A stretch of 64,000 nucleotides of DNA from Verrucomicrobia bacterium Opi.OSU.00C. GTDB lineage: Bacteria > Verrucomicrobiota > Verrucomicrobiia > Opitutales > PNEW01. The position numbers and the translations under genes were made by a program. The stretch spans positions 5,811-69,810 of the forward strand of contig PNEW01000002.1 in NCBI GenBank assembly GCA_002922725.1, written 5' to 3'. The notes beneath the pieces are model-generated. The model was not told the origin of the DNA, did no database searches, and was given only the letters and a program-made list of their open reading frames with translations. Shown here in pieces: positions 1 to 43,060 of the stretch. Position 1 is the first letter of the stretch. Every line of letters starts with the position of its first letter.

Positions 1-407
1 AAGGAGACATCATCGAGTGAGAGCCGTGCTATACCTTTCAGGGTATTGATATTAACAGTCATATCTTTAGCTCGGACCAACCCCATCCTCCATGAGGAAA
101 TTTCGTCTTCACTGCTTTCATACATAAAGCAAGGTGGCATCTGATTACCCAATGTTTCCAATACACGTATATCAAGTAGCAGATTCGCATTAAACAAAAA
201 TAGCTCTCGGTTATTTTCCAAAGCTATTTCCGGAAGAATTCTTAAAGGATCGTCGCCAGAAAATTCAATTTCCCGTAGCCGAAAATAAAGATCTAACGGC
301 CTTGGAATATCTAGGGCCGGAATAATCTCTCCTTTGGGGTAAATAATGACTGCAGATTCAACGTTAACTGTATCCAAATATCTCAAGTTGCGTTCAAATA
401 GTGTCAT
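1..407 (-). CDS. hypothetical protein with nucleotidyltransferase-like N-terminus (3' end lies beyond the window edge)
   Basis: The minus-strand frame from ATG 407-405 (MTLFERNLRYLDTVNVESAVIIYPKG...) stays open to position 1; I checked it triplet by triplet. It is absent from the ORF track because it has no in-window stop. A second ATG at 459-457 (MIAILYKTIGPWW...) sits 2 nt after the upstream gene's stop. It joins this frame only if one C of the C6 run 409-414 is removed. Confidence 0.5.
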   Translation of the reverse strand, partial: MTLFERNLRYLDTVNVESAVIIYPKGEIIPALDIPRPLDLYFRLREIEFSGDDPLRILPEIALENNRELFLFNANLLLDIRVLETLGNQMPPCFMYESSEDEISSWRMGLVRAKDMTVNINTLKGIARLSLDDVS

Positions 408-461
408 TCCCCCCAGTCTCCACCATGGACCTATAGTTTTATAAAGTATAGCAATCATTTC

Positions 462-917
462 TTATTGAGCCGTTATGGTGATAGATTGAAATTCAGAACC
501 AAGAAAGAATTTAGTCTTTTCAAACTCTGGTGAAGTGAAAATAGGTCTGATATTATTTGAAAATCCAAATCTTTCTCTATAAACTATATTAAACAATCCT
601 TTATTAAATTTATCGTCGTTATTTTCGTCATGATAAAGAGCAATCGCATACTCTCCAAAAGGGATTTCAGAAATATGTACAATCACCTTTTTCTCTTTGG
701 GTTTAATTACTATCGCTCGAAATTCTTTACCTTTCTTGCAAAATGTGTCACTAGACGTGTAAAGTGCTATTCTGACGTAACCATTATTATTTCTTAATTT
801 CTGAATGTGGATTTCAATTATTCCTTTTTTTAATTCTGGATTGAACTCTTCAGCATCCAAAAAAATACCCGTTAAACTTAAAAAGATTATTAATTTAATG
901 CTTAAGATTTTTGGCAT
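462..917 (-). CDS. DUF2141-family secreted protein
   Basis: Track ORF 462..962. The C-terminal half is typical of the family (FGEYAIALYHDENNDDKFNKG...RERFGFSNN). Internal Met at 917 gives a signal-peptide-like start, MPKILSIKLIIFLSLTGIFL. Confidence 0.65.
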   Translation of the reverse strand: MPKILSIKLIIFLSLTGIFLDAEEFNPELKKGIIEIHIQKLRNNNGYVRIALYTSSDTFCKKGKEFRAIVIKPKEKKVIVHISEIPFGEYAIALYHDENNDDKFNKGLFNIVYRERFGFSNNIRPIFTSPEFEKTKFFLGSEFQSITITAQ

Positions 918-1395
918 TCTATATGAGCCCAATTGAAATTTTTCCATATAAATCCATATCAAATGTCTAATGCAATAGAAAGATTATGCTGAATAATGCA
1001 AATTGTATATCCTTAAACTAAGATCATAACCTTCAAGTTTTAGATAGAAAAGACAGCAGACATAATTACCTGTTTTCATCAAAATAAGAACGGTGCATCT
1101 AACAGGAAATCCGCATAAAAAAAGTCAAAAGGGGAAATATTCGCCAGAATACAGGAGTTCCTGGTGACATACACTTTTTTGATTGTAATATTGTACATGG
1201 CTTCGGATATGATATGTCTCCCCTTCCTCGTAAATTGTTTATCATCTCTTATAATACTATTGATAATAATCCGCGATCTATGAATAAACCACAACCTTAC
1301 TTGGTTGTAGCCCGCCAGTTTGATATTATTGAGTGAGTCTCTTCGAATATTTTAATCTTCTATAATTATTAATTACTGTGTAGTTTAATCCTGTT

Positions 1396-2262
1396 ATGGA
1401 AAACAAACACTTAACTTCCGAAGAGATGGCTTTTATTAAAAATTTTGGCTATCTTACTTTTCCGGGTTTATTTAAAAATGATATCCATCAAATTATTACC
1501 GAGTTTGAAGCGATTTGGTCTAGTAACGGCGGAGGACATAATGGCAAACTCCATGAAGGGATACAGCGTTCATGCATCGCCTCATTTATAGATCAGAGTG
1601 AATACCTATCCTCATTATTGGATGATCCACGAATAGACAATATGATGACCAGTCTACTCGGCGAAGACTACAATTATACCGGAAGCGATGGGAATTATTA
1701 TGCAGGCAATACTCCCTGGCACTCTGATGGTGGATTCACTGAAGGTCAAAGAATAGCTAAGTGGTACAAAGTGGCATTTTACCTCGACCCATTGACACGC
1801 GAATCTGGTGCTTTAAGGGTAATTCCAGGCAGCCATAAACTCAATGATAGTTACGCAGAGACTTTGGAACAGGAAGTAAAAAACTCATTACGAACGGAAG
1901 AGCAGAAACTTTTTGGAGTTAAGGGGAAAGAGATACCTGCAATGGCTTTGGAAACAAATCCAGGTGATGTCGCAATATTCAACCATGCCACCAAACATAG
2001 CAGTTGGGGAGGCGGGGGGAAACGGCGCATGTTTACCATGAACTTTTCAAGCAGATATAAGCCCAAACATTTACATTATCTTCGTGACGTAATTAGCCGA
2101 AATTCCAGATTTTGGATAGACTCAACCTATGGGCAAATACTACTGAAAACAGCGGGGCCTAACAGGATGCGACATCTTGAACAAGTTCTCGCAAATCAAG
2201 ATCATCTTCCTGAAGAGTCTCGTAAAGCAAAAGAAACGATGAGTGAACCCGCTCGTGGTTGA
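1396..2262 (+). CDS. phytanoyl-CoA dioxygenase (PhyH) family Fe(II)/2-oxoglutarate oxygenase
   Basis: 288 aa. HxD-type metal motif in TPWHSDGG and a distal His in IFNHATKHSS. Length and layout are typical of PhyH-like proteins. Confidence 0.75.
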   Translation: MENKHLTSEEMAFIKNFGYLTFPGLFKNDIHQIITEFEAIWSSNGGGHNGKLHEGIQRSCIASFIDQSEYLSSLLDDPRIDNMMTSLLGEDYNYTGSDGNYYAGNTPWHSDGGFTEGQRIAKWYKVAFYLDPLTRESGALRVIPGSHKLNDSYAETLEQEVKNSLRTEEQKLFGVKGKEIPAMALETNPGDVAIFNHATKHSSWGGGGKRRMFTMNFSSRYKPKHLHYLRDVISRNSRFWIDSTYGQILLKTAGPNRMRHLEQVLANQDHLPEESRKAKETMSEPARG

Positions 2263-2314
2263 TTAACAAGGATTAAATCTCTTAAACAAATATATACGGG
2301 GGTTATGCTAGATT

Positions 2315-3157
2315 TTAATATAAGCTAGTGAGATCAACTTTACAAATATGCCACCCTCCCAAACTAGCAACAAAGAGTTCATAATCATTACGTAAAGCAA
2401 TATTCGTTGGATGATTCAGTTTAGAGTAGATCTTATCCTCAACTAGGAGTTCTGCCTCATTTCTATCATTGACAATGAATATCCGGTTAGGATCAAAACA
2501 GGTGATAAAAAGTTGTCCCTTAGTATTAAGAGCGAGTCCATCTGGAACATGACCGTCTGGCATACGCACATATAGCCGCTTAGGTCCAGCACTACCGTCT
2601 TCATTAATGGACACGGCTGTAACTCCTGGTAAGTAGCTCTCCACAATATAGAGTGTATCACTATCCAAGGACAATGCTATCCCATTAGCAATAATGCAAT
2701 CTTCACTCATCCATAACTCACTTTTACCAGTTGCCAGATCAAATCGCCATATTCCTGGGCCATTTTCCTGGCTGTTTGAAACATAAAGTGCATTACGTTT
2801 TTCATCTACAACTACGTAATTTGGAACAGTCATTTTTTCATCACCGTCAATGCCAACAAGACAATCTAGCTTAACCCCATTCTCATCAAATACCGTTACA
2901 CACTTATGACCAGAATCGCATACATATATACGTCGTTGAGAGTCCATAGCTAACCCCAAATGATAACCATCTGTTTTTGATAACATTTCAATTTCCGAAC
3001 CATCCTTATTAATACGGTATAATTCACCATGTTCACCTCCACACCATATATTTCCGTCCGGATCTACCATAATCCCTTCTGGATGGTTAAGACGGATCTT
3101 GGAATAACGCGCAAAATGAAAAATACTGACAGAATCTAAACTAAGGAGAGGTTTCAT
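2315..3157 (-). CDS. SMP-30/gluconolactonase/LRE-like beta-propeller protein
   Basis: 280 aa. Repeated propeller-blade motifs: PEGIMVDPDGNIW, ANGIALSLDSDTLYIVES, PDGLALNTKGQLFI. Confidence 0.75.
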   Translation of the reverse strand: MKPLLSLDSVSIFHFARYSKIRLNHPEGIMVDPDGNIWCGGEHGELYRINKDGSEIEMLSKTDGYHLGLAMDSQRRIYVCDSGHKCVTVFDENGVKLDCLVGIDGDEKMTVPNYVVVDEKRNALYVSNSQENGPGIWRFDLATGKSELWMSEDCIIANGIALSLDSDTLYIVESYLPGVTAVSINEDGSAGPKRLYVRMPDGHVPDGLALNTKGQLFITCFDPNRIFIVNDRNEAELLVEDKIYSKLNHPTNIALRNDYELFVASLGGWHICKVDLTSLY

Positions 3158-3186
3158 TAGCTAATATTAAAATTATTTGTGGTTTA

Positions 3187-3963
3187 TTATTCTATAAATC
3201 GTGGGTTGGTTGTAAGTCCACCGTCAACCATAAGTTCAGCGCCAGTGACAAAACTCGAATCATCAGAACCAAGAAAAGAAGCAACCCCAGCAACTTCATC
3301 GGGATCTCCAATCCTATTCATCGGATGCATGCCGATCCAGGATTTCATAAGATTTTCTCCGCCTGGTTTCGTAATGAGCTTCGCATTCATTTCCGTGTTG
3401 ATAGTTCCGGGAGATATGCTGTTTACCCGAATGTTTTGGGGAGCAAACTCTTTAGCCAGTTGGCGAGTCATAGAAATAATTGCCCCTTTTGCCGCAGTGT
3501 AAGCAGTGAATGTATCAAGCCCTACATGTGCCGCTGCCGATGCAATATTAATAATCGACCCCCCCTCTCCTTTTTGCATGTAAGGAATGACAAATTTACA
3601 TCCACGATATACACTGGAGAGATTGGTATTAATAACTTTATTCCAATCGTCTTCGGCCATTTCTGTAATTGTAATACCAATGGCTATGGCTGCATTGTTA
3701 CAAAGAATATCGATTTTACCAAAGTGGCCTATTGTTTGCTCAACAGCTGAAGAAACCTCATCTGAATTTCCAACATCACAAGTTATAGCGTGTACTTCTC
3801 CTCCTTGAGCCTGTATGGACCTCGCTTCTTCTCTACATTTTTTTTCCTGGATGTCTATCATTGCAACTTTTGCTCCTTCACGGGCAAATCGTTGTGAAAT
3901 TGCTAACCCTATGCCGTCTGCTCCACCAGTGATTATAGCAACCTTATCTTTTAATTTCCCCAT
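3187..3963 (-). CDS. SDR family oxidoreductase (FabG-like)
   Basis: 258 aa. TGGADGIG cofactor loop, NNAA motif and catalytic YTAAKGA. Confidence 0.9.
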   Translation of the reverse strand: MGKLKDKVAIITGGADGIGLAISQRFAREGAKVAMIDIQEKKCREEARSIQAQGGEVHAITCDVGNSDEVSSAVEQTIGHFGKIDILCNNAAIAIGITITEMAEDDWNKVINTNLSSVYRGCKFVIPYMQKGEGGSIINIASAAAHVGLDTFTAYTAAKGAIISMTRQLAKEFAPQNIRVNSISPGTINTEMNAKLITKPGGENLMKSWIGMHPMNRIGDPDEVAGVASFLGSDDSSFVTGAELMVDGGLTTNPRFIE

Positions 3964-4245
3964 ATTTGATCCTGAATATTAACTAAATTGAGTGTCAAGT
4001 TTTATGCGGAAATCTTATCATCTAATCGATTATTCAATAGTAAAGGGTTATCCACAGTTGGAATTTCTTTGTGCTCACACATAACTCTAACTATTATTTA
4101 AACATTATATTTATTCTTTATGAGCCAAGTAATTGTAATTAGACACCCTAAAGAGCGTAAGAGTAAATGTAGCCTTGCTTCTCTACATAACCATCACCTT
4201 ATTACTTTTTATAATGCACACAAGGATTTCCGTTTTGATGCAACA

Positions 4246-4328
4246 GGCTATATATTACTTACACTGAATACTTCCCCGTTAACATCTCAAGATTCTGGAC
4301 ATTCTTTCATTATCCTGGACAGCACTTG
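4246..4328. repeat. 83-bp direct duplication, copy 1 (flanks the adapter block)
   Basis: Identical to 4550-4632 at 80 of 83 positions by hand alignment. Differences are at 4257, 4263 and 4287. Confidence 0.95.
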
Positions 4329-4550
4329 TCTCTTATACACATCTGACGCTGCCGACGATATGCAGTGTCTAGTTTTCAGCGGGTTCTCGAGAGAGTTGCA
4401 TTAATTGTTTCTGACTCCCCTGCATATACGTTTTTTCCGTTGATCTTGCTTTCATTGGTTACTTATGTCATGGCATTTTTTTTTTCAATAATAAGAAGGC
4501 ATACTAATTTAGAGAGTTCTCGTGGGCTCGGAGATGTGTATAAGAGACAG
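4327..4550. other. Illumina Nextera library construct (adapter contamination / assembly artefact)
   Basis: 4327-4358 is TGTCTCTTATACACATCTGACGCTGCCGACGA, the reverse complement of the read-1 adapter plus Tn5 mosaic end. 4359-4366 is TATGCAGT, the reverse complement of i5 index ACTGCATA. 4486-4509 matches P7 CAAGCAGAAGACGGCATACGAGAT at 17/24. 4510-4517 resembles the i7 oligo GTAGAGAG. 4518-4550 is TCTCGTGGGCTCGGAGATGTGTATAAGAGACAG, the read-2 adapter. Confidence 0.97.
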
Positions 4551-4632
4551 GCTATATATTCCTTACGCTGAATACTTCCCCGTTAACATCACAAGATTCT
4601 GGACATTCTTTCATTATCCTGGACAGCACTTG
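4550..4632. repeat. 83-bp direct duplication, copy 2
   Basis: Second copy of 4246-4328. It begins immediately after the read-2 adapter/mosaic end. Confidence 0.95.
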
Positions 4633-4895
4633 GCGCCTCATTCCGCATCTTGAAGACTGTATTGAAGGAGAGCCAATACGACGTTCTCTACCTAAAAATA
4701 TTAAAACTGCCTATCCTCGAACAAGTAAAATTTTTGAAGATCCAGAAGGAGGGCTCGCCTCAATTGAAGCACTTTATCTAGCCATGAAGATTGTAGGTGA
4801 AGATAATCCATCGCTCCTTAATGAGTATTATTGGAAAGAGCAATTTCTTAGTGGGCTACGTCAAACAAAGAAAGTCGATTAATAAGTTTGATCTC

Positions 4896-5390
4896 ATGAA
4901 ACTATACTTACTAAGACACGCGGAAGCCCAATCAACTTATCCTGACGAAAAGCGCTCATTGAGTGAGAGAGGGAAGAATACTACTATTGAATTAGCTAAT
5001 TTTTTGAAGGCAAAGGGTGCCATAGCTATCGATGAAATCCGTCACAGCAGCCTTGCTCGTACTGGCGAAACAGCACAAATATTTAATGCTGAGATGAATC
5101 TAGGTCTACCCTTGAATAAAATCACCGGCCTAGCACCTTTAGATGATGTGCGAATACTCGCCAATCAACTACAAATAGAAGAGAAAAATATTATGCTCGT
5201 TGGCCATTTACCACAGCTTTCAACCCTTGCCTCATACCTTATAACAAAGGATGAAGGATCAATTCTATTTAACTTAAATACCTGCGGATTAATTGCACTT
5301 GAACGCTATGAGGGCTATTCCACAAATAAAGATAACAATCCGCTCTGGGTTATACAATGGATGCTTGATCCTCAATTATATGTGAGTTAG
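4896..5390 (+). CDS. sixA: phosphohistidine phosphatase SixA-like (histidine phosphatase superfamily)
   Basis: The internal ATG at 4896 gives MKLYLLRHAEAQ...RSLSERG (RHG-type catalytic motif) and VGHLPQLSTLASYL near the C-terminus. The upstream part of track ORF 4797..5390 overlaps the DTW gene's 3' end. Confidence 0.7.
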   Translation: MKLYLLRHAEAQSTYPDEKRSLSERGKNTTIELANFLKAKGAIAIDEIRHSSLARTGETAQIFNAEMNLGLPLNKITGLAPLDDVRILANQLQIEEKNIMLVGHLPQLSTLASYLITKDEGSILFNLNTCGLIALERYEGYSTNKDNNPLWVIQWMLDPQLYVS

Positions 5391-5455
5391 GGTGAATTGG
5401 GTTCAACAATAAACTTTTCGACAAACCCGCAGGAGTCGCGAAGTGAAAGCTTTAT

Positions 5456-6265
5456 TTAAACAGCAGCAGGTAATAGATCAGTATTAAGCCCCCGATTCAT
5501 TATGTCATTGCCCCGAACAAGGTAATATATTCGATGAAAGTCACTATTATCACGGTAATCTTGATAAACTTTTTCCGCCATTTCATCTTCAGCTCCCATG
5601 TACCGCAAAACGAGTACACGACGCCACCTATCTGAATTATTTGGCACTGAGTTATGTGGTATCATCGTATCATGAATACACATTTGCCCTGCACGCACCT
5701 TGTACTGCACTTTCACTTGATCTATATTTTCTGGCAGTACAGCTGGATCAATTTCTTCTGAAAAAAATTGTTCATTCCCATAAAGTCTTTTTAGAGTACC
5801 TTTTTTGTGCCATCCAGGAATGATTGCCATCGCCCCATTATCTTCATCAATATCATCGAATGCTATCCATACCCCACCCGAAAGATTCTTTGATACATTC
5901 CAGTATGGCGCATCCTGGTGCCATGGGATGGCTTCCCCTGTACGGGGCTGTTTGCACAATAAATGAGAGGACCATAAAACAATATTAGGACCAACTTGCT
6001 TTTCTAAAAGATCCAATAATTTCGGCTCTGTAGCCAAATCAATCATCCACTGCGCTCCCAATTGATGGGCAGATACAATCATATGTTTAGGCAATTCTTC
6101 GCAAACCTGTGTTGTCATCCGATCAATTTTATCTCGACAGTAAATCAGCGCTTCATCAGTCAAAAATTTATCACAGATGTGATACCCTTCTTTAAGGTAA
6201 TGTAAGTTTTCTTCATCTCCATAATGGAAAGCCTCGTGTATCATGGTATAAGGGTTAGTAGTCAT
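5456..6265 (-). CDS. phytanoyl-CoA dioxygenase (PhyH) family oxygenase
   Basis: 269 aa. IPWHQDAPYW (HxD) and a distal His in IPHNSVPN. Confidence 0.75.
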   Translation of the reverse strand: MTTNPYTMIHEAFHYGDEENLHYLKEGYHICDKFLTDEALIYCRDKIDRMTTQVCEELPKHMIVSAHQLGAQWMIDLATEPKLLDLLEKQVGPNIVLWSSHLLCKQPRTGEAIPWHQDAPYWNVSKNLSGGVWIAFDDIDEDNGAMAIIPGWHKKGTLKRLYGNEQFFSEEIDPAVLPENIDQVKVQYKVRAGQMCIHDTMIPHNSVPNNSDRWRRVLVLRYMGAEDEMAEKVYQDYRDNSDFHRIYYLVRGNDIMNRGLNTDLLPAAV

Positions 6266-6650
6266 TTAAATATGCTTATTTATTACATTGATTATTAATT
6301 ACGATATGGTGCCTTTAGAGATTAAAAAGTCAATAACCCGTATGGGTGATTTAGCTACATTTTCGTTGTAAAATACTGATCTAAGCCCAGCCCTCACAAA
6401 GAAAATAATCATCCATTGCTTGTACTGGATAGGTTTATGCAAATCTAATAGAAATAATAGAGGGGTTCAATTTACTTATTAAAATTTAATCCTACTTAGA
6501 TCTATTTAAACTTCAAAAGTTGTATTTATTATATAATTTATAACTGATTCCCCTACCTTCAATTTATATCCGGATCAATTACCTTTAGTATTAGGTGCTT
6601 ATAAAAAAATATTTACTACCCATCTTAATTTTACCCACCATTAATTATTA

Positions 6651-7556
6651 ATGAATAAATATATAGGTAAAATTATCTCCCAATGGGAGAGTAGCGATGG
6701 TAATATTTTCAACTATACTTATTGGCCCTCTAATAAGAGGGCTGAAGTCCAACCGGACGTGGTGCTCATTGCGGTCCACGGATTAAGTGGATCGGCAAAT
6801 GATTTCTACCCTTTGGCTAATCACTTATCAAATAAAAATTATGTTACCTACGCCTATGAAATGCGCACCCAAGGAAATGATCCCAAAGTTAAACGTCGTG
6901 GGGACCTTATCGATTGGCATATACTGATAAGTGACCTTAAAGATTTTTGCGATTATGTTTACACCTTACACCCTGAAGCCACACATATACTTGCCGGTGA
7001 AAGCATGGGCGCTGTAGTTACGATCAATGCTTGCTCTATTGAAAATTATCTTTCCCATGTCGAAGGTCTGATTTTATTTGCCCCTGTAACTGAATTAGAT
7101 ATCCATTTTCAGCAATGGCAGATTTATATATTTCGCTTATTGACGAAGATTTTACCCTTGATAAAATTTTCCCCTGGATGGTTCAATAATAGTAGAGGCC
7201 GATCAAGGCGCATTAGTAGTGACGACGTATACGAAAAATACCTCCAACAGGCGCCGTATAGAATAAAATATTTTACCGCTAGATTTTATTATTCTTTATT
7301 TAAAATGGTTGAAAATTGTAACCTGGCAGCCAGTAAAATAAATTTACCTGTATTACTTCTTTATGCCGGTAATGATATTTATATAAAAACAAACAAAGTT
7401 GAATCATTTTTCGCACATCTAAATAGCATAGATAAACATAAACAATTATATCCCGATGCTTTTCATTTATTGCTGCATGATACAATTACACCTAAGGTTC
7501 TTAATATGGTTGAAAACTGGATTGATCGGTTACATTACTCCATTAAAGGCAATTGA
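6651..7556 (+). CDS. alpha/beta hydrolase (lysophospholipase/monoacylglycerol lipase-like)
   Basis: 301 aa. Oxyanion region HGLSGSANDF, nucleophile elbow GESMGA and a C-terminal His in AFHLLLHD. Confidence 0.8.
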   Translation: MNKYIGKIISQWESSDGNIFNYTYWPSNKRAEVQPDVVLIAVHGLSGSANDFYPLANHLSNKNYVTYAYEMRTQGNDPKVKRRGDLIDWHILISDLKDFCDYVYTLHPEATHILAGESMGAVVTINACSIENYLSHVEGLILFAPVTELDIHFQQWQIYIFRLLTKILPLIKFSPGWFNNSRGRSRRISSDDVYEKYLQQAPYRIKYFTARFYYSLFKMVENCNLAASKINLPVLLLYAGNDIYIKTNKVESFFAHLNSIDKHKQLYPDAFHLLLHDTITPKVLNMVENWIDRLHYSIKGN

Positions 7557-7670
7557 GTAAAATAAGACTAAACAACCTTAAATTATAGTGTAAGAATGAT
7601 AGTTAAAATTTTGTTTATTCATTCTAAAACGTTGCTCTAATTAATTCTTTTTATACAATATCTTACTATC

Positions 7671-9536
7671 GTGGAAACAAAACCATCTGTACCTCCATCC
7701 AATAAATATTTAAAAATGTGGAGAGGTGTCAGAAGAGGATTTACCTTACTCGCCGAAAATAACCAGCTAGATTTCTTTCCTATTCTCGGTGTTTTAAAAT
7801 ATTATAACAAGAGTAAGCTAAAAAGTGATTTTCGCGCCGCGGTAAACGTAGCACTACTTACTTTTCCACAAGGTATGGCTTACGCGTTAATCGCTGGTAT
7901 TCCTATACAGTATGGTGTTTTCGGCGCAGCCATAGCTTCGATTTTAGGGCCGATATTTTCTGGGTCTCGGTATATCACATTGGGTCCGACAAACGCAACT
8001 GCGGTATTGTTCTTTAGTTCATTTCTTGCAATTGGAGGAACGGCATTAGCAAAGGTTGTGATGATGCCACTTCTTCTCTTCATGGTTGGGGTGATTATGA
8101 TTGTTGGAGCTTACCTTCGCGTTGCTAATCTTATCCAATATATTTCACGCAGTGTGATATCCGGGTATATAACAGGTGCCGCTATTCTGATTATCGCCAA
8201 CCAGCTAAAAAGTGTACTTGGATTTGAAATAGAAGGAGCCTTTACATTTTATCATGTTTGTCGACAGACGTTAGCTTCTTTGCCCCTTATCCATTGGCCT
8301 TCAGTTATAATAAGTATAATTACAGTTATTGTATATTTCTACCTCTTGAGGAAATTTAAAAAGCTTCCTACCGTCGCCATCACATTGCTAATTATGGGCG
8401 TAATCGCAATCGTTATTAATTATTTAATTCAATCACCCCTATTTGCTCACATAGATTTGCCCTCCCTATCTATGCTCAATTCGATCAATGCTAGTAATTG
8501 GGTTTTTAGTCCTCCTGATTTTAATTTCGAATGGATAAGTCAATTAGCAAGTTTAGCATTGGCTATTTCCTTTATCGCCATTTTGGAAGGAGCATCAATC
8601 GGTAAATCATTAGCTGCTCGTTCAGGTGATCACCTTGATACTAATCAAGAGATGTTAAGTATTGGGGTCGCTAATCTTTGCTGTGGCTTCCTTTCTGGAA
8701 TGCCTGCTTCTGGTTCACTGACCCGATCAACACTCAATTTTATGTGTGGTGCTGCAACTAGATGTTCAAATATTATTACCGGAATTTTCTGTATAATCGG
8801 TGTCTTTAGTTTTGGTCCATTCATCAGCTACATCCCTAAAGCATCTCTTGCAATAGTTGTAATTATTATTGGAGCATCACTTATCAATCGGCACACGATA
8901 CAGGTAGTTATGAAAGCTACTCGGTCAGATGCGATTGTTTTCATAACCACCTTTATTGGGACACTGCTTTTCCGTTTAGATACGGCAATCTATTTTGGTG
9001 TAGGAATATCTATTCTACTTTTCTTACGTAAAGCAGCAATACCAGAGTTAATAGAATATACTTTCACGAACGAAGGTCATTTAACCCAACTTGAGAACAA
9101 GACAAGAACAAACCCTGAAATTTCAATCGTCCACATCGAAGGTGAATTATTTTTTGGTGCGGTTGAGCTCTTTCGGGATCAAATGCGGAGAATTGTTGAA
9201 GACCCAAACTTGAAAATTGTTGTATTGAAGATGCGTAACGCTCACCACTTAGATGCAACCAGTGTTTTAGAATTGGAAGAACTTACTATATACATGAAAG
9301 ATCTAAATCGACACCTACTTTTAAGCGAGACAAGAAAAGATGTCATTCGTGTCTTAAAAAATTCAGGGTTATTGAACATAATTGGCCGTCAAAATATATT
9401 CCCTGACATCACACAAAATCCTACTTTGTCCACTGCTAGAGCTCTTAAACGAGCACAAAAGTTACTAGGCGACAAGAAGGCAAAAATAAGCATTTACGCC
9501 GATAAATCAAAATTAGCAAAGATAGATCCTATGTAA
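7671..9536 (+). CDS. SulP family inorganic anion (sulfate) permease with C-terminal STAS domain
   Basis: 621 aa with a GTG start. Multi-pass hydrophobic core with SulP-type FPQGMAYALIAG, then a soluble STAS-like tail (IVHIEGELFFGAVE...HLDATSVLELEEL). Confidence 0.9.
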   Translation: METKPSVPPSNKYLKMWRGVRRGFTLLAENNQLDFFPILGVLKYYNKSKLKSDFRAAVNVALLTFPQGMAYALIAGIPIQYGVFGAAIASILGPIFSGSRYITLGPTNATAVLFFSSFLAIGGTALAKVVMMPLLLFMVGVIMIVGAYLRVANLIQYISRSVISGYITGAAILIIANQLKSVLGFEIEGAFTFYHVCRQTLASLPLIHWPSVIISIITVIVYFYLLRKFKKLPTVAITLLIMGVIAIVINYLIQSPLFAHIDLPSLSMLNSINASNWVFSPPDFNFEWISQLASLALAISFIAILEGASIGKSLAARSGDHLDTNQEMLSIGVANLCCGFLSGMPASGSLTRSTLNFMCGAATRCSNIITGIFCIIGVFSFGPFISYIPKASLAIVVIIIGASLINRHTIQVVMKATRSDAIVFITTFIGTLLFRLDTAIYFGVGISILLFLRKAAIPELIEYTFTNEGHLTQLENKTRTNPEISIVHIEGELFFGAVELFRDQMRRIVEDPNLKIVVLKMRNAHHLDATSVLELEELTIYMKDLNRHLLLSETRKDVIRVLKNSGLLNIIGRQNIFPDITQNPTLSTARALKRAQKLLGDKKAKISIYADKSKLAKIDPM

Positions 9537-9721
9537 CCTATATATCCAATTTTACAATAGGTTCTCACACCCTAGGAATGGTCTAAATAATCTTCTTATT
9601 ACTGAACACGAATTGTTAAATTGAATTATTAATTTATATATTATACTCGAGATATTTAGATGTACTTTTTTAAAGGCTGGTTGAATTAATTTTGTCATTA
9701 TTCGACAATCCCATATTTGAT

Positions 9722-11986
9722 ATGAAAGAAATATTTAGGATATTTATTACTTATTCTTCGACAGTAATGTACGCATCATTTTGCCTTGGTTTTATATTAT
9801 TCCCGCACCTCTTAATTGCAAATAATGCAGATGATCTTCAAATCGTGCCCACACAAAGCAATCGACTTATCAATGAACAATCCCTCTATCTTTTGCAACA
9901 TGCGTTTAATCCAGTTGATTGGTACCCTTGGGGAGAGGAAGCATTTGAAAAAGCCCGGGTAGAAGATAAACCTATCTTTTTATCGATTGGCTATTCCACC
10001 TGCCATTGGTGTCACGTTATGGAACGTGAATCGTTTTCCAATCCGGAAATTGCACGGCTGATGAACAAATATTTCGTCAATATAAAAGTTGATCGAGAAG
10101 AACGTCCAGACGTAGATCAAGTATATATGCGTTTTGTCCAAACAACTACAGGTAGTGGTGGATGGCCATTAAATGTTTGGCTTACTTCCGATCTTAAACC
10201 CTTTGTCGGGGGAACTTATTTCCCCTCTAAATCGAATTATAAGCGTCCAGATTTTTCTTCTGTCTTAAATTCAATAGCTAAAATGTGGAATACTGACCGT
10301 GAAAAAATATTGAAAATAAGTAACGAAATCCTGACACATCTTAGCCCATCAAAAACTGATCCATATAGTTCTGAAAATTTAAATTTAATCAGCCTAAAAA
10401 ATGCATACACTATTTACAAAGATACATATGATAAAAACTCTGGCGGGTTTGGAGCTGCACCCAAGTTCCCTCACCCAGCATCATTAAATTTTCTTCTACG
10501 TTATTCAGTTGGCAAAGATATTGAAGATGTCGATAAGCAATTAGCCAAAGATATGGTTTTTTCCACTCTTCGAAATATTGCACAGGGTGGAATCAATGAC
10601 CATGTGGGTGGAGGATTTCACCGTTATTCAGTGGATGACCAGTGGCGCATGCCACATTTTGAAAAAATGCTCTACAATCAAGCTCAACTTTCAAGCGTAT
10701 ACCTAAATGCTTACCAACAAACTAGAGATCCTTGGTACGGTGATATTGCAAGGAATGTTTTGCGCTATGTTTATAATCAGCTTACCGATCCTGCAGGCGG
10801 CTTTTACTCTGCGGAAGATGCCGACAGCCTTCCGACTCCCAATGCCAACGAAAAAAAGGAGGGGGCATTCTATACATGGACAATGAACGAAATTATCGGA
10901 ATCCTGGGAAAAGAAACCGCAAATATTTTCTCTTACCATTACGGCTTTAAGAACAAAGGAAATGTCCTTTTTCAAAATGATCCTCGGGAAGAATTCATCG
11001 GTAAAAACATTCTATACGAAAAGTATTCGCTCAAAGATACAGCATTAAAATTTAACCAGAAGGAAGAAGCTCTAGAAATTCTTATCAATCGATGCAAGGA
11101 TCGCCTACTCAAAGAACGTAACAAACGTGAGAGGCCACAGCTTGATGATAAAATTATTACTGCTTGGAACGGTTTAATGATCTCTTCCTATGCCCGTGCT
11201 TCTGTTATTCTTCAGGATCCGGTTTATTTAGAAAGAGCATCGGCAGCCGCAGGTTTTATTCGCAATAATCTTTATCAAGAAAGTAATGGCCGCTTGCATC
11301 GTTCCTATCGCAACGGGTCCTCTCAAGTAGGAGGATTCCTTCAAGATTATGCTTATCTTATACAAGGTTTGATCGACCTTTATGAGACTTCTTTCAATAT
11401 TCATTGGTTACAGTGGGCACTTCAACTTCAAAAAAAGCAGGATATCCTATTTTGGGACGATGTTACTGGAGGTTATTTCACTGTTACAGGAGAAGACGCA
11501 AGTATTCTACTTCGTATAAAAGATAACTTTGATGGAGCCATTCCTTCACCAAACTCGATTGCTGCTATGAATCTCTTACGTCTGTCACAAATAATAGATG
11601 ACTCAAGCCATCGAAGACGCGCTGAAAAAACAATTCGCGCTTTTAGTCCAAGCTTTATAAAATCCCCCCGATCAATGCCACATATGCTGTCAGCTATGGG
11701 TTTCTATCTTGATACCCCTAAACAAATAATTCTCTCCGGCGATAGGTTTGCTCCCACCACAAAAGCAATGCTCAAGGAAATTTACCGCCACTATTTACCT
11801 AATAAAGTAATTCTTTTGGCTGACGGTGCAGAAGGACAGGAATTCCTTAATCAGAAACTTGCTATTTTAAAAACGATTAATCCCGTAGACGGCGAAACAA
11901 AGGCTTTTGTATGTGAAAATTATACATGTGATATGCCAACAACCCAGGTGGCAACATTGACCCGTCTACTAAAAAGATCGGAATAA
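9722..11986 (+). CDS. thioredoxin-domain protein of the DUF255/YyaL (SPATA20-like) family
   Basis: Track ORF 9692..11986 starts at TTG; the first ATG is at 9722. Contains [16 protein letters not shown] plus a long alpha/alpha-toroid-like C-terminal region. The N-terminal hydrophobic segment suggests export or anchoring. Confidence 0.85.
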
Positions 11987-11996
11987 GATAGAAATA

Positions 11997-12788
11997 CTAT
12001 TTTTCGGCAAATCCTATTAAAGATTTACGAAGCGATGGCACCATATCTTTAAGCATCGTCCCCAGTGATCTGATGCGTGATAATCCCATCCGATAACGCC
12101 GCGACTTTAGAAAAGTGCAATTGATGTTTTTAAAATTTCCTGCCTCCAATAATATTTTCAACTCTTTTATTGTGAATTCCCTATTGTGCCTATCAGGATA
12201 AAATGACTGGTTCTTATAAGAAATGGGGTCACTATATAAATAATGTGTTTCATAATCATAAGTGATATTTTTCCCTCTAAGTATACGAGATCTATTTCTA
12301 AAACTTACTACATTAGGAACATCCAATTCAATAATACCCCCTGGCTTTAAGACCCTGTACATTTCTTTTATCGCATGAAGGTGTGAATGAGAAAAATGTT
12401 CAAGGACTTGACAACATACTACACCATCAAAGTAATCATTAGGATAAGGGATTGAATCCACCTCGACATTACACTGTTTGAATTCAATATCTTTTTTTAA
12501 AAATATGCCTGGATAGACTTCTCTATTGTCAACGATATCAATAGCAAAACATTTGTGGCCAAGTTCATATAACAATGATGATAGTAAACCTGGGCCTGGA
12601 CCTACATCCAAAATTTTTTCTTGGTTCTTAAATTCATAAGCTATCCAACAAAAGCGGTCAATGCTGCCACAGAAGTTACTTTCCTGAGCTTTATTATTTA
12701 GATCATAAAGGGTTCCACTTTCTCTTACCTTCAAAGCAAGTTGAAAGATTTCTTTTCTACCTAAGCCTTGTGTTTCCTTTATGTTCAT
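11997..12788 (-). CDS. class I SAM-dependent methyltransferase
   Basis: 263 aa. Motif I ILDVGPGPGLLS and the later segments VVCCQVLEHF and LKPGGIIELDVPN. Confidence 0.8.
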   Translation of the reverse strand: MNIKETQGLGRKEIFQLALKVRESGTLYDLNNKAQESNFCGSIDRFCWIAYEFKNQEKILDVGPGPGLLSSLLYELGHKCFAIDIVDNREVYPGIFLKKDIEFKQCNVEVDSIPYPNDYFDGVVCCQVLEHFSHSHLHAIKEMYRVLKPGGIIELDVPNVVSFRNRSRILRGKNITYDYETHYLYSDPISYKNQSFYPDRHNREFTIKELKILLEAGNFKNINCTFLKSRRYRMGLSRIRSLGTMLKDMVPSLRKSLIGFAEK

Positions 12789-12848
12789 ATTACTTAGATA
12801 AAGTAATAAATACCTATATGTATTTATACGATTACTTTTATTGGTGAA

Positions 12849-13259
12849 TCAATTCCTAATCGGACGATATATCGCAGCAAGAATAATCCCCGCTAATATT
12901 AATTTAAGTACCCCGCCTACTAACCAAAAAATAAAGAGATTCATGGGTAGAGGTTGAGTTGCATACAAAATAAATATGGGGGCTGTCATTAATAGGCCTA
13001 TTAATAATCCATACCGTGCTCCCTCTCCCAATCCTCTATCTTCATATCCATGGAGAAAAATTAAACAGAAAAATACGGCCAACGTGATTTGTCCAAATAC
13101 ACGCCAAAATAAAAAAGATAGTATCCCTTTATTATGTCTCCATAAAGATGGAGCATCTTCATAAAAATTTTTGATAACAAAGTCATGCATAACCCAATCA
13201 AATAAAAAGATAAACGTGAATATACTTAGACATGACAAAATGAACTTTTCTTTATTCAT
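12849..13259 (-). CDS. small integral membrane protein (about four hydrophobic helices), function unknown
   Basis: 136 aa, strongly hydrophobic throughout. Same strand as its neighbours with tight spacing. Confidence 0.5.
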   Translation of the reverse strand: MNKEKFILSCLSIFTFIFLFDWVMHDFVIKNFYEDAPSLWRHNKGILSFLFWRVFGQITLAVFFCLIFLHGYEDRGLGEGARYGLLIGLLMTAPIFILYATQPLPMNLFIFWLVGGVLKLILAGIILAAIYRPIRN

Positions 13260-13368
13260 TATATTTATGCTTCTTCAATTTCTATAATAAATTAATTTTA
13301 AAGACCTAAATTTAGAACTTAAATATGATTTGTCACCAAATTTTGTTTTTGAGAAATTAACTAACTTC

Positions 13369-14706
13369 TTATCTCCTAAAAAATAATTGTTCCCCCGATG
13401 GATTAGGATCCACTTGCCCTTTTCGATAAGCAATATGACCTGAAACAATAGTAGCATAAATTGAGGATTTGAATGTGAACCCTGTAAAAGGGGACCACCC
13501 ACATTTGTAGAGAAGATTTCCTTCGCTAACCGTATATGCTGTATCCATATCAATCAGCACTAAATCAGCCCAATATCCTTCACGGATAAAACCCCTATCT
13601 TCCAATTGAAAAAGTCTCGCTACTGCATGACTGGTTTTCTCTACGATAAGCTCTAGAGGAAAAATACCCGAATGATAGTGTTCAAGTAAGGAGACCATCG
13701 CATGCTGCCCTAAAGGCATTCCTGAGGGTGCATAAAAATAAGAGTTCTTTTTCTCCTCAAGTGCATGAGGCGCATGATCAGTGGCAATAACATCAATCTT
13801 ATTATCTATGACTGCCTGACGTATAGCATCACGATCACTTTGAGTTTTAATTGCAGGATTACATTTTATAAGTGATCCTTTTTTTTCATAATCTGAATCG
13901 TCGAAAAACAAATGATGGACACAGGCTTCAGCAGTAATGTGTTTTTCTTCAAGTTGAAGATCAGAAAATAAAGCAACCTCATCAGCTGTAGTAATGTGCA
14001 AAATATGTAACTTTGTACCGTGCCTACGTGCAAGTTCAATAGCAAAAGATGATGACTTCAAACAGGCCCCAACATTTCGAATTAAGGGGTGGTAACAAAA
14101 TGGGATGCTTTCTCCATATTTCTGAAAATATATTCTTTCATTGTTTTCGATCATGGAATTATCTTCACAGTGAACAGCAATAATAATCGGTGCATGAGTA
14201 AAGATTTTGTCTAGAGATTCGGGATTATCGACAAGCAAGCTCCCCGTCGAAGATCCCATGAAAATTTTTATACCACAGATCTCTCTTGCATTTACATTTT
14301 TTATTTCTTCAAGGTTATCATCCGTCGCACCCAGGTAAAATGCATAGTTAGCAAATGAATGTTGAGATGCTATTTTAAGTTTCTCATCAATACGTTTATG
14401 ATCCACAGTTGGAGGATTAGTATTTGGCATTTCCATATAACTCGTAATTCCACCCGCAACAGCAGCACGTGATTCGGAAAATATATTACCGATATCTTGG
14501 AAACCCGGTTCACGAAAATGCACTTGGTCGTCAATCATGCCTGGGAGTAGAAACCGTCCCTCAGCATCAATAATCTGATCTGCTGTCTGAAATGCTAAGT
14601 CTGTTCCCACCTGTGAGATACGTCCTTCTTTTATAAATATATCTCTGTTTTGAATCGTACCCTCATTAACACAATTAGCATTTAATATTAAAATGCTCTT
14701 CATCAA
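13369..14706 (-). CDS. pyrC: dihydroorotase (cyclic amidohydrolase family)
   Basis: 445 aa. Metal ligands in DDQVHFREPG, HILHITT and VIATDHAPH. Confidence 0.85.
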   Translation of the reverse strand: MMKSILILNANCVNEGTIQNRDIFIKEGRISQVGTDLAFQTADQIIDAEGRFLLPGMIDDQVHFREPGFQDIGNIFSESRAAVAGGITSYMEMPNTNPPTVDHKRIDEKLKIASQHSFANYAFYLGATDDNLEEIKNVNAREICGIKIFMGSSTGSLLVDNPESLDKIFTHAPIIIAVHCEDNSMIENNERIYFQKYGESIPFCYHPLIRNVGACLKSSSFAIELARRHGTKLHILHITTADEVALFSDLQLEEKHITAEACVHHLFFDDSDYEKKGSLIKCNPAIKTQSDRDAIRQAVIDNKIDVIATDHAPHALEEKKNSYFYAPSGMPLGQHAMVSLLEHYHSGIFPLELIVEKTSHAVARLFQLEDRGFIREGYWADLVLIDMDTAYTVSEGNLLYKCGWSPFTGFTFKSSIYATIVSGHIAYRKGQVDPNPSGEQLFFRR

Positions 14707-14955
14707 CTTTCTCCTATTAGTTTTAATAAATGATTATGAAAATATAACATTTTTCCGGATGCAAAAAACGGACTTATCCAACGACCAAAATATACTCTGG
14801 TAAAAATTATTTTCCACAAATCAACTGTCTCACTTTATTACCCCCAACTTTGAATAGTGACACCTCCTAGACTGAAACGGGTAAATATTTAAAAGTCTGT
14901 CTTTTTGGCTTTAATATGATTACATAATGATAAAACTAGAGGGTTAAGGAATCAG

Positions 14956-24084: not shown

Positions 24085-25440
24085 ATGATTGAATTGAGAC
24101 CGGAACGGCTGATCCCACAAAACTTTCAAAATAGTTCCTTAGAGATGACGAACAAAGATACTTTCACCAACCATTTGAATCGAATTAATAGCGCACCTGC
24201 ATGGCTCCTGGATCTTAAGCGTGCATCTTGGGATAAATTTGTCTCTACATCCATGCCCAAACATACTGATGACACTTGGCGTTTTACTAACACAAAAAAT
24301 CTTAATTTGGATAAATATCATCAAATAAGTGATATTAAATCGATTAAAAAAGAATCATTTGAAGAACAATCCAATCAACTTAATTTAATTTCCGGTAAAA
24401 TCGTATTTGTGGACGACCATCAATGTAGGGATACAGAATTTGACACAGAGTTGAAAGAAAAAGGTGTGATTTGGACAACTTTAGAAGATGCTTTCCTAAA
24501 TCACCGTGATCTTATAAAAAAATACGTCACGGGTAAATTACCAAACCTTGGTGCGGAAAAATTCGGCTCCCTCCATCATTCACTAATGACAAATGGCATC
24601 TTTCTTTATATTCCTCAGGGTATCGAAATCGATTTACCATTTACCGTCTATAATTGGACATCTACTATGGGTATGGCCGTGTTCCCGCACACGATAATTA
24701 TCACAGATAAATACGCTAAAGTAAATTTAGTTAGCTTTTTTAAAAGCATGGAACCAAACATCCAAAACCTGGCTATTTCCTGTTCCAATATTTATGCGGG
24801 AATAGGCAGCCAAATTACCTTCACAGCGATTCAGGATTGGAATCTCAAGACCCAAAGTTACCACCTTAACACCGCGAATGCTGATCAAGACGCTAATATA
24901 AAAAATATTAATATTAATGTCGGTTCTGCCTATATGCGCCATGAGCATCATACTCAGATGTTTGGTTTAGGTAGTAAAACTGATACTTATTCACTTAGTT
25001 TAACCACCGGCGAACAAGAGTTTGATCAACGCAGTTTGCAAACACATTCCGCACCCAACACTAATTCTGACCTTCTTTTTAAAAACACACTCCTAGATAG
25101 TTCACGCACCATCTTTTCTGGGCTTATTCGCGTTAACGAAAATGCCCAAAAAACTGACGCTTACCAGACAAATCGAAACCTGCTTCTCAGTGAATCTGCG
25201 GAAGCTAACTCTTTGCCTGGTCTTGAAATATTAGCAGATGATGTCAAGTGCAGCCATGGTGCGACTTCTGGGCGGCTAGATGATAATCAGATATTTTATT
25301 TACTCTCACGCGGGATAACAAAAAAGACAGCACAACAACTGATGGTTTTTGGGTTTTTAGAAGAAATTATTGACAAGCTTGATAACCAAGATCTTGCAAA
25401 TAGGGTACGAGATATCATTCGCAAGAAACTTCCAAAATAA
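24085..25440 (+). CDS. sufD: Fe-S cluster assembly protein SufD
   Basis: 451 aa. SufB/D-family beta-helix C-terminus (CSHGATSGRLDDNQIFYLLSRG). Lies between sufB and sufT. An alternative start is at 24145. Confidence 0.9.
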   Translation: MIELRPERLIPQNFQNSSLEMTNKDTFTNHLNRINSAPAWLLDLKRASWDKFVSTSMPKHTDDTWRFTNTKNLNLDKYHQISDIKSIKKESFEEQSNQLNLISGKIVFVDDHQCRDTEFDTELKEKGVIWTTLEDAFLNHRDLIKKYVTGKLPNLGAEKFGSLHHSLMTNGIFLYIPQGIEIDLPFTVYNWTSTMGMAVFPHTIIITDKYAKVNLVSFFKSMEPNIQNLAISCSNIYAGIGSQITFTAIQDWNLKTQSYHLNTANADQDANIKNININVGSAYMRHEHHTQMFGLGSKTDTYSLSLTTGEQEFDQRSLQTHSAPNTNSDLLFKNTLLDSSRTIFSGLIRVNENAQKTDAYQTNRNLLLSESAEANSLPGLEILADDVKCSHGATSGRLDDNQIFYLLSRGITKKTAQQLMVFGFLEEIIDKLDNQDLANRVRDIIRKKLPK

Positions 25441-30608: not shown

Positions 30609-31402
30609 AGTTTATGTAATTAAACAAACGTTAAGGATTTAATAGAATCTCAAACTGTGTAATATCTACTACCTTCTGACAACTTATTTGTTACATATAC
30701 ACTATATTACCCATTACATCACACCCGTAGTCCTACACAATTGATCCTATATTTTCCTCCATTTCTTCAATGTGATCGTGAAGTAACTTAGACTCATCCA
30801 GTCACTGGATTGCAACAGATGACTTGTTGCAGTAGCATACTATATGAGTACAATACTAAATTTAAATCTAATTCGTCATACCTAATATCCAAAGATAAAT
30901 TTGGTATCGAATTATTCGAGGAACAGTTATCCTTAATAACCCCTGGATTATTCGCCTCTAGAAACCGTTTTGATTGGAAGGTTATCTACTTATATCCTAG
31001 CCCATCGAACCTTCCTCATTTTTTCACCTCCGCCGCATCCAATATAATGGATATATTATGGGGGTGTTCCACTGTTACGATTCCCCCCCTACCCTCCTAA
31101 ATTATCAAGGAAAAGTAATTAATTCTATCCAGCATTATCCTTAGATATTGGCGAATTTGTTGCCAGTGTGCCATAAGTACGCAAAACATATATTTATAAA
31201 ATTATTATATATAGTTACTTACATAAATAGAGGTTATATTGTAATTAATACATAAGATATTAGTCTTACCTCTGGTTCTAATATGAATTTGTCGTCCCTA
31301 CAGATTTTCACTCTTTTTTAGAAGGAAAAGAATGCTCCATTTGTAAATAAGATTCGCTGTTATAGCATTGATAGCTCAAACTATATTTATTTAAATCTAT
31401 CC

Positions 31403-31816
31403 ATGGTTAAAATAACTGCAAAATACGAAGGTCAATTGCATTGTCAGGTGATTCACGAACCATCAGGATGCCATCTTCACACCGATGCTCCGGTTGATAA
31501 CAAAGGGCGTGGCGAAAGTTTTTCTCCGACTGATCTCTGTGCCACTGCATTTGCAACTTGCATGGCGACAATTATGGGAATCCATGCTGAGAAGCTTGGG
31601 GTCGATCTGAAAGGAATGAAAGTTGAAGTGACAAAGGAAATGTCCGTCGACATGCCGAGACGCATCGTTCGTTTACCAGTTGAGTTTTGGATCCCCCGCA
31701 AGGTAACGGAAGCGCATAAAGTTGCTTTAATTCACGCCGCTAAAACCTGCCCCGTCTACTACAGCCTAAATCCCAATATTGATAAACCCACCTGCTTCCA
31801 TTGGGTAGACGTCTAG
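31403..31816 (+). CDS. OsmC family peroxiredoxin-like protein
   Basis: 137 aa. The two conserved Cys contexts are SPTDLCATAFATCM and KTCPVY. Confidence 0.85.
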   Translation: MVKITAKYEGQLHCQVIHEPSGCHLHTDAPVDNKGRGESFSPTDLCATAFATCMATIMGIHAEKLGVDLKGMKVEVTKEMSVDMPRRIVRLPVEFWIPRKVTEAHKVALIHAAKTCPVYYSLNPNIDKPTCFHWVDV

Positions 31817-31832
31817 GGACTTTATTTATATA

Positions 31833-42008: not shown

Positions 42009-42959
42009 ATGGTGAATGATAATTTCAAGTATACTAACTCTAAATCACTTCTTTTCCGTCAGCTGTCTTGGAATGATATTGATCCGATCTACTTACAACA
42101 ACTTATCCTTCTAGCCAAAGAGGAAGATTTTGAGGGTTCAGGATTAGCGACATTACCAAAAGTGGTTGGTGATGTATCGACTAATAGCCTTAATTTGAAC
42201 GATAATCTTGAAAGTGAAGCATCAATCGTAGCTAATTCGGAATTAATTATAGCTGGTCTACCTCTTGTCCCTATCGTTCTTAATACTTATGGTGATGGTT
42301 GCATCTTTAATCAGAGAGTTAGAGAAGGGTCTCGAGTTGCTAAAAATGAAATTCTCGCTTCTATAACTGGTCCTGCCAATACGATACTCCAGGCTGAACG
42401 GGTGTTATTAAATTTTATTCAACACCTATCCGGAATTGCCACACTCACTTCAGACTTTGTTGCAGCTCTTGGAAACAGTAAAACACGACTCTTGGATACA
42501 AGAAAAACAACACCTGGTTTTCGAGTCCTAGAAAAATATGCCGTCGCGCGTGGTGGAGCATGGAACCATCGGATGGGACTTTTCCATTGGATTTTACTTA
42601 AAGACAACCATTTGGCCGTCTCCGGAGTAAATGCTGGTCATGCATTAACGGAGTTGATATCCCGAGTACGTAAAAATTCCAAAAATCTAATAATCGAAGT
42701 TGAAGTCGATAACCTTGAACAAATCGATCCAGTATTAGAAGCGGGAACAGATATAATTCTATTTGATAATTTCAGTGTTACCGAACTGGATGAAGCTGTT
42801 AAAATAGTTGGTGACCGTGCTATTAAAGAAGCGAGTGGTGGTATTTTTTTTGAAAAGTTACCTCAAATCTCCAATCTAGGACTCGATTTTATTTCCCTTG
42901 GAGCTTTAACCTATCAAAGTACATGGATGGATATTAGTTTGGATTGGAAGCTGATTTAA
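42009..42959 (+). CDS. nadC: nicotinate-nucleotide pyrophosphorylase (carboxylating)
   Basis: 316 aa. AERVLLNFIQHLSGIAT, LLDTRKTTPGFR, KDNH and ASGGI motifs. Confidence 0.9.
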   Translation: MVNDNFKYTNSKSLLFRQLSWNDIDPIYLQQLILLAKEEDFEGSGLATLPKVVGDVSTNSLNLNDNLESEASIVANSELIIAGLPLVPIVLNTYGDGCIFNQRVREGSRVAKNEILASITGPANTILQAERVLLNFIQHLSGIATLTSDFVAALGNSKTRLLDTRKTTPGFRVLEKYAVARGGAWNHRMGLFHWILLKDNHLAVSGVNAGHALTELISRVRKNSKNLIIEVEVDNLEQIDPVLEAGTDIILFDNFSVTELDEAVKIVGDRAIKEASGGIFFEKLPQISNLGLDFISLGALTYQSTWMDISLDWKLI

Positions 42960-43060
42960 GATTGCCGAGGACAGGTTTTACTTAAATAATTTAACCTAAT
43001 TGCTTGTATTAGTATTAATCAGTTTCCCCTTAGGAAGTAAAATATTCCTAGTTTTAGCAT

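Follow-up and report, generated by a model that had tools for sequence, protein, structure and literature searches.

Residual adapter sequence in contigs is what NCBI VecScreen/UniVec and FCS-adaptor are directed against. A 33-mer that joins the tail of the Nextera read-1 adapter (TCGTCGGCAGCGTC) to the Tn5 mosaic end (AGATGTGTATAAGAGACAG) is present in at least 120 IMG/VR contigs, 28 GenBank phage records and 8 PLSDB plasmids, and among the matches listed for IMG/VR, 124 of the 125 copies are outward-pointing tips located less than 150 nt from a contig end. This is the usual form of contamination by adapter read-through. The same strings occur in the window, i.e. the whole 64-kb stretch of DNA analysed here, but there they close into an internal loop whose insert is duplicated, which is a rarer arrangement. 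As the block is internal in its contig, end-trimming would miss it. The sole internal copy among the 120 IMG/VR loci listed resides at L025 2140-2190 (IMGVR_UViG_3300000510_000121), where the read-1 adapter and the index TATCCTCT (N503) directly follow an 'NN' scaffold gap.

Two published records come closer to the arrangement in the window. In the Klebsiella pneumoniae plasmid pvirulence_VBA27935 (CP058799.1, 15430-15583; L157 1001-1154) the adapter parts occur in the same order and tail to tail, as a cassette of R1rc-i5-P5rc-A7-TCTC-T7-P7-i7-R2. Unlike in the window, P5 and P7 are free of errors in this cassette, only 'TCTC' lies between A7 and T7, and the flanks are not duplicated, so that two places are joined instead of one place being looped. 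The plasmid is labelled 'complete', the cassette adjoins a copy of IS26 and no repeat is common to its two flanks, suggesting that adapters mediated a misjoin. In Escherichia phage vB_EcoM_WFK (MK373775.1, ~149.7-150.1 kb; L155 ~950-1370) an internal loop like that in the window is found: a 53-nt insert is duplicated, the copies lying 313 nt apart around the reverse complement of the R1 adapter, an index, P5rc, A12 and noise, and the gene for the long tail fibre proximal subunit is broken up into several CDS that include an annotated 'hypothetical protein'. Unlike the window, the phage record has no read-2 adapter arm (at up to 3 mismatches) before the second copy. Among physical insertions, those of Tn5 or EZ-Tn5 share the outward-facing 19-bp mosaic ends with the window, whose block differs from them in an 86-nt instead of a 9-bp duplication, in the lack of cargo and in an interior composed of adapter.

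The features of the locus, in window coordinates, are the following.

4120-4882, forward strand: putative Tsr3-like gene of the TDD/DTW superfamily that the block splits falsely; natively, 4120-4328 continues directly into 4633-4882.
4120-4404, forward strand: open reading frame with a spurious tail (…LLYTSDAADD… in translation).
4243-4328, forward strand: copy 1 of the duplication, genuine genomic sequence, identical to loci L001-L003 over the full 86 nt.
4326-4358, reverse strand: Nextera read-1 adapter (TCGTCGGCAGCGTC tail at 4345-4358, Tn5 mosaic end at 4326-4344), 32/33, mismatch at 4326.
4329-4632, no strand: the 304-nt segment to delete for the native sequence, based on the restored reading frame and the block-free relatives.
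4359-4366, reverse strand: i5 index S/N506 (ACTGCATA), present as its reverse complement TATGCAGT, 8/8.
4365-4571, forward strand: spurious 68-aa open reading frame made of noise and adapter (…GLGDVYKRQ…), no Pfam match.
4367-4395, reverse strand: slot of the P5 reverse complement, 11/16 over 4367-4382, then 2/13.
4396-4475, no strand: sequence treated as noise, base calls past the template end, matching nothing.
4476-4485, forward strand: run of ten T (T10), as in the spacer of the surface-grafted P7 flow-cell oligo, adjoining the 5' end of P7.
4486-4509, forward strand: decayed P7 (CAAGCAGAAGACGGCATACGAGAT), 17/24.
4510-4516, forward strand: slot of the i7 index; N707 (oligo GTAGAGAG) gives the best fit if one base is taken as lost, with N716 as the alternative.
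4517-4550, forward strand: Nextera read-2 adapter (GTCTCGTGGGCTCGG tail, mosaic end 19/19 at 4532-4550), 33/34, mismatch at 4517.
4522-4653, forward strand: spurious open reading frame (…MCIRDR… in translation).
4547-4632, forward strand: copy 2 of the duplication, with errors at 4561, 4567 and 4591, derived at least partly from an error-prone read.

Both Nextera arms are unique: a Hamming scan of both strands revealed nothing else in the 64 kb that is close to either, and the 33-mer of the read-1 arm has its sole site in the window at 4326-4358. By our calculation, chance alone would yield a 33-mer match with no more than one mismatch about 2e-13 times in 128 kb (both strands). The mosaic ends match the engineered sequence at 18/19 positions in the read-1 arm and at 19/19 in the read-2 arm, whereas the same ends reach 15-16 against OE and 14-15 against IE of the natural IS50, the lower value in each case belonging to the read-1 arm. 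The two mosaic ends are the sole inverted repeat near the site, and 187 nt separate them. The Nextera read-1 adapter sequence is routinely given as one to be trimmed ahead of assembly (for example in PMC6460022); for adapter trimming the sequence is CTGTCTCTTATACACATCT. Next to the read-1 arm, the i5 index is exact, S506 being listed as P5-ACTGCATA and N707 as P7-GTAGAGAG in a published primer table (PMC7589761, Appendix B). The i7 index is less clear. N707, which had been proposed in an earlier, sequence-only reading of this DNA, is indeed the top-scoring candidate, but it requires a 1-nt deletion plus G>T changes and N716 is a close second, so that N707 is plausible and not secure. That reading had also placed the read-1 adapter with its mosaic end, S506, the P5 complement (11/16), P7 (17/24) and the read-2 adapter with its mosaic end, and our measurements returned the same matches, with both adapter arms taken to begin one base earlier, at the mismatched positions 4326 and 4517.

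Beyond the indexes, the block contains degraded forms of the two Illumina end sequences. The 11/16 match to the reverse complement of P5 at 4367-4382 is equalled at 2e-4 of the window positions, while the match over the full 29 nt (13/29) is not significant alone. The 17/24 match to P7 is equalled at one other window position and takes its weight from its placement; together with the preceding T10 it amounts to 27/34, which is unique in the window, and nowhere in the 64 kb other than at 4476-4485 does an A or T run reach a length of 10. Illumina's original grafting oligos carry a T10 at their 5' ends, and to our knowledge this spacer is part of the flow-cell oligos and absent from library primers and library molecules. 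Given that the spacer belongs to a flow-cell oligo, the run points to a block that was read off a cluster and not from a genome. Surface-grafted P5 and P7 oligos that bear a 5' T10 are likewise listed in PMC13584795 (Table 1). Such runs stand in clean form beside P5rc and P7 in CP058799.1 (A7 and T7) and beside P5rc in MK373775.1 (A12). The ~90 nt between the decayed P5 and T10 were treated as sequencer noise. A comparison of the interior (4359-4490) with a phage collection in distant mode, the collection presumably including PhiX, returned just 19-nt chance matches (E = 5), and 4396-4475 found only chance matches in the rest of the window (9-12 nt exact, 13-19 nt inexact; best E = 0.22). Cross-talk between the G/T and the A/C channels was considered as an error spectrum; it fits the P7 arm and not the P5 arm, and we do not rely on it.

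The block is bordered by two direct copies (4243-4328 and 4547-4632) which lie 304 nt apart and are identical at 83 of 86 positions; this is the only repeat of at least 35 nt in the window. The duplication had previously been described as 83 bp with 80 identical positions, and while its direct orientation stands, its extent has to be corrected to the values given here. Between the copies lie 218 nt of non-genomic sequence (4329-4546), or 221 nt (4329-4549) if the adapter-derived bases that open copy 2 are counted. The outer 4 nt (4243-4246, ACAG) and 3 nt (4326-4328) match the adapter ends by coincidence, and the true insert is therefore only ~79 nt long (4247-4325). The complete order is [insert][R1 adapter rc][i5 rc][P5 rc…] noise […T10][P7][i7][R2 adapter][insert]. 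Accordingly, the parts of a complete library construct, as which the block had been described, are indeed there, but they do not stand in native order; the block is a circular permutation of the construct, in which read 2 comes first and read 1 follows in reverse complement.

Independent assemblies lack the block. From contigs carrying a 99%-identical homolog of the 152-aa protein encoded at this locus, and from those carrying the exactly identical protein P0122, we gathered 13 loci (TARA, Logan, ENA) of the same marine Opitutales-like organism. All 13 contigs run collinear with the window as far as 4328 and resume at 4547, they contain the 86 nt in a single copy, and none of the 16-mers of 4329-4546 occurs in these related loci. 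In six of them (L146-L151) the compared flanks agree with the window at every base other than 4561, 4567 and 4591, which are exactly the positions at which copy 2 differs from copy 1. Thus, judged against the relatives, the changes in copy 2 are errors and this copy stems at least in part from an error-prone read. Deletion of 4329-4632 yields the native sequence. One of the three changes turns Leu46 into Phe. Leucine occupies the matching position in the motif GYILLTL in 5/5 of the closest homologs and in 5/6 of the members of the same 90% cluster that were read, the exception being P0125, in which the GYILLTL stretch is missing due to an internal deletion. The 94-aa chimeric reading frame gave no match in an exact-product look-up, and a 45-mer across the junction is not found in JGI metagenome contigs. 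In one of the related records (L143 13667-13766; ENA ERZ23495044 scaffold_15, 258 kb), at the place corresponding to window 8025-8079, there is a 100-N gap with duplicated 55-nt flanks. These are overlapping contig ends that a scaffolder left unmerged, a separate artefact in another record; the window is continuous at this place.

We consider it about 97% probable that the block is an in-silico assembly artefact derived from one short-insert Nextera molecule, the two mates of which were joined tail to tail. In this scenario, a single Nextera library molecule with an insert of ~79 bp (4247-4325) would have been sequenced, and both mates would have run beyond the insert, reading in turn the adapter of the other side, the index, P5 or P7, the flow-cell spacer and finally noise. 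Read 2, on the forward strand, would account for the insert, the mosaic end rc, the read-1 tail rc, S506 rc and the decayed P5 rc, and the reverse complement of read 1 for noise, T10, decayed P7, i7, the read-2 tail, the mosaic end and again the insert. With adapters left untrimmed, the noisy 3' ends of the two mates might then have become connected, whether through a loop in the graph, during paired-end gap closing or by a read merger. The assembly path would exit the genome after the insert and re-enter it before the same insert, and a single traversal of the loop would leave the insert duplicated. The adapter parts stand in the order and at the spacing that such a tail-to-tail join predicts. 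These parts, the duplication, the lack of the block in independent assemblies and the read errors in copy 2 are observed, and the software step behind the join is inferred.

The distribution of errors can be read along the inferred read 1. Cycles 1-38 contain no error and cycles 39-79 contain three (4591, 4567 and 4561), followed by one in the 34-nt adapter; within the i7 index and P7 about one base in three is wrong, and noise comes after them. A 250-nt read 1 that starts at 4629 would end at 4380, and similarity to P5 ends at 4382; from this match we infer a read length of ~250 nt (2x250). As there is no poly-G, the instrument was probably a 4-channel one. Several points count against the proposed origin. 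Merging or gap closing would have had to be permissive for one noise tail to be joined to another; P5 and P7, which belong to the true template and would be expected to be clean, are badly degraded; and on the P5 side no A-run follows the P5 reverse complement.

The same facing adapters between two copies of an insert would also be expected if the molecule itself were chimeric, that is, if library molecules or adapter concatemers had been ligated or fused during PCR, as in a head-to-tail concatemer of one amplicon, and had then been sequenced faithfully. This would still be a laboratory artefact, and we give it a slim chance: the T10 in front of P7 matches a flow-cell oligo spacer that, as far as we know, library molecules do not contain; P5, P7 and the ~90 nt between them resemble late-cycle miscalls rather than a molecule that had been copied; and copy 2 carries read errors. 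A genuine insertion of the Tn5 type bounded by mosaic ends, such as one from transposon mutagenesis, in the Tsr3-like gene would explain why terminal inverted repeats of 18-19 nt face outwards and why a direct repeat flanks them. Tn5 duplicates 9 bp of its target, however, and the repeat here is 86 nt long and its copies differ at three positions. The block carries neither cargo nor a transposase, and its 187 nt between the mosaic ends give no Pfam match and consist of sequencing primer tails, indexes, P5/P7 and a flow-cell spacer; moreover, the organism appears to be uncultured and marine, and the block is absent from the 13 assemblies. Such an insertion is therefore highly improbable.

Terminal inverted repeats together with a flanking direct repeat might equally call to mind a natural miniature inverted-repeat element with its target-site duplication. 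The arms, however, fit the engineered mosaic end (18-19/19) and not OE (15-16) or IE (14-15) of IS50, their tails belong to two different Nextera primers, and neither the 64 kb nor the related loci contain a second copy, which leaves this explanation a practically negligible probability. For the feature to be biological, the block would have to be physically present in the DNA of the organism, as a synthetic element bounded by mosaic ends, and truly disrupt the Tsr3-like gene; no evidence favours this, and we regard it as extremely unlikely. The assembly of two untrimmed mates hence remains our preferred explanation, and the sequence-only reading, which had called the block a laboratory artefact and not an insertion, is borne out in this respect by the mosaic ends, the index slot, the T10 run, the 13 block-free assemblies and the restored protein.

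That protein is obtained by deletion of 4329-4632, which leaves a single open reading frame of 152 aa plus stop, as had been predicted; it equals P0122 and occurs verbatim on 12 public contigs. The junction is located within a conserved LDSTW motif, in which L66, D67 and W70 are invariant and S68 and T69 are present in at least 90% of the aligned homologs, and 33 homologs align through the junction without a gap. The gene had been described as encoding a DTW-domain protein, which holds at the level of the superfamily. However, the sequence scores stay below threshold for Pfam DTW (PF03942; 19.3 bits against a gathering score of 33.7), for Ribo_biogen_C (PF04034; 15.4 against 29.9) and for NCBIfam DUF367 (24.5 against 152), and the fold is closest to Tsr3. 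The family profile matches archaeal Tsr3 (5APG) with E = 3e-4, and an AlphaFold model (pLDDT 89.1) matches the same structure with E = 7e-7 and a TM score of 0.71, whereas its match to E. coli TapT, the DTW enzyme, is weak (E 0.085, TM 0.53). Based on these sub-threshold sequence scores and on the modelled fold, the gene is a putative bacterial Tsr3-like member of the Tsr3/DTW superfamily. The name 'pre-rRNA-processing protein TSR3' is one used by JGI only, and we know of no described substrate of a bacterial Tsr3-like acp-transferase.

The family of Tsr3-like proteins of about 150 aa comprises 747 homologs at E<=1e-3, most of them without a Pfam domain on record. The few family matches with a named source belong mostly to Planctomycetota and Verrucomicrobiota, and relatives in genome collections derive from Opitutales, Verrucomicrobiota, Planctomycetota and Gimesia MAGs. 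Synteny with the related contigs extends to the neighbouring genes, with an SDR gene upstream and genes for PhyH and a histidine phosphatase downstream. When the representative genomes of GTDB were scanned with a protein pattern, an Opitutales MAG was closest (81% aa identity), and the organism is probably a marine member of the Opitutales. Some proteins of the same 90% cluster, or near-identical relatives, appear to be affected by assembly defects of their own: P0125 lacks 25 internal residues, and the C-terminal ends of P0009 and P0129 diverge in a way that resembles a frameshift.

With respect to the remainder of the window, ~21.7 kb were compared with other assemblies and are collinear at 98.8-100% identity, namely 1-14,717 (block excepted), 31,366-36,953 and 42,899-44,313. 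A look-up of the reading frame at 43061-44071 led to an identical 1.4-kb contig and a 25-mer at 36 kb to a 5.6-kb contig with 99.5% identity, while a look-up of the reading frame at 24085-25440 returned no match. A search of the 64 kb for other adapters, using 11-mers of TruSeq, P5, P7 and the start of PhiX, yielded isolated single 11-mers at chance rate. With neither further adapters nor further long repeats in the 64 kb, and with collinearity throughout the parts compared, the damage looks local. The suggestion that the artefact lowers trust in the whole contig is thus only weakly borne out, even though the block does show that untrimmed reads of poor quality went into the assembly. No tRNA, tmRNA or Rfam family at gathering score was detected in the 64 kb (Rfam, ARAGORN).

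Taken as a whole, the block is a laboratory and assembly artefact of a known kind and no biological feature, and the value of its recognition is one of data hygiene only. Left in place, it mimics a transposon by its inverted ends and apparent target duplication, and it results in a gene that is wrongly split and in two or three small reading frames that seem 'novel' and carry adapter-encoded peptides; LLYTSDAADD and GLGDVYKRQ had already been recognised as such in the frames at 4120-4404 and 4365-4571, to which MCIRDR in 4522-4653 is added here. A T10 run that adjoins P7 is a handy marker of a block derived from the flow cell. The remedy is to delete 4329-4632.
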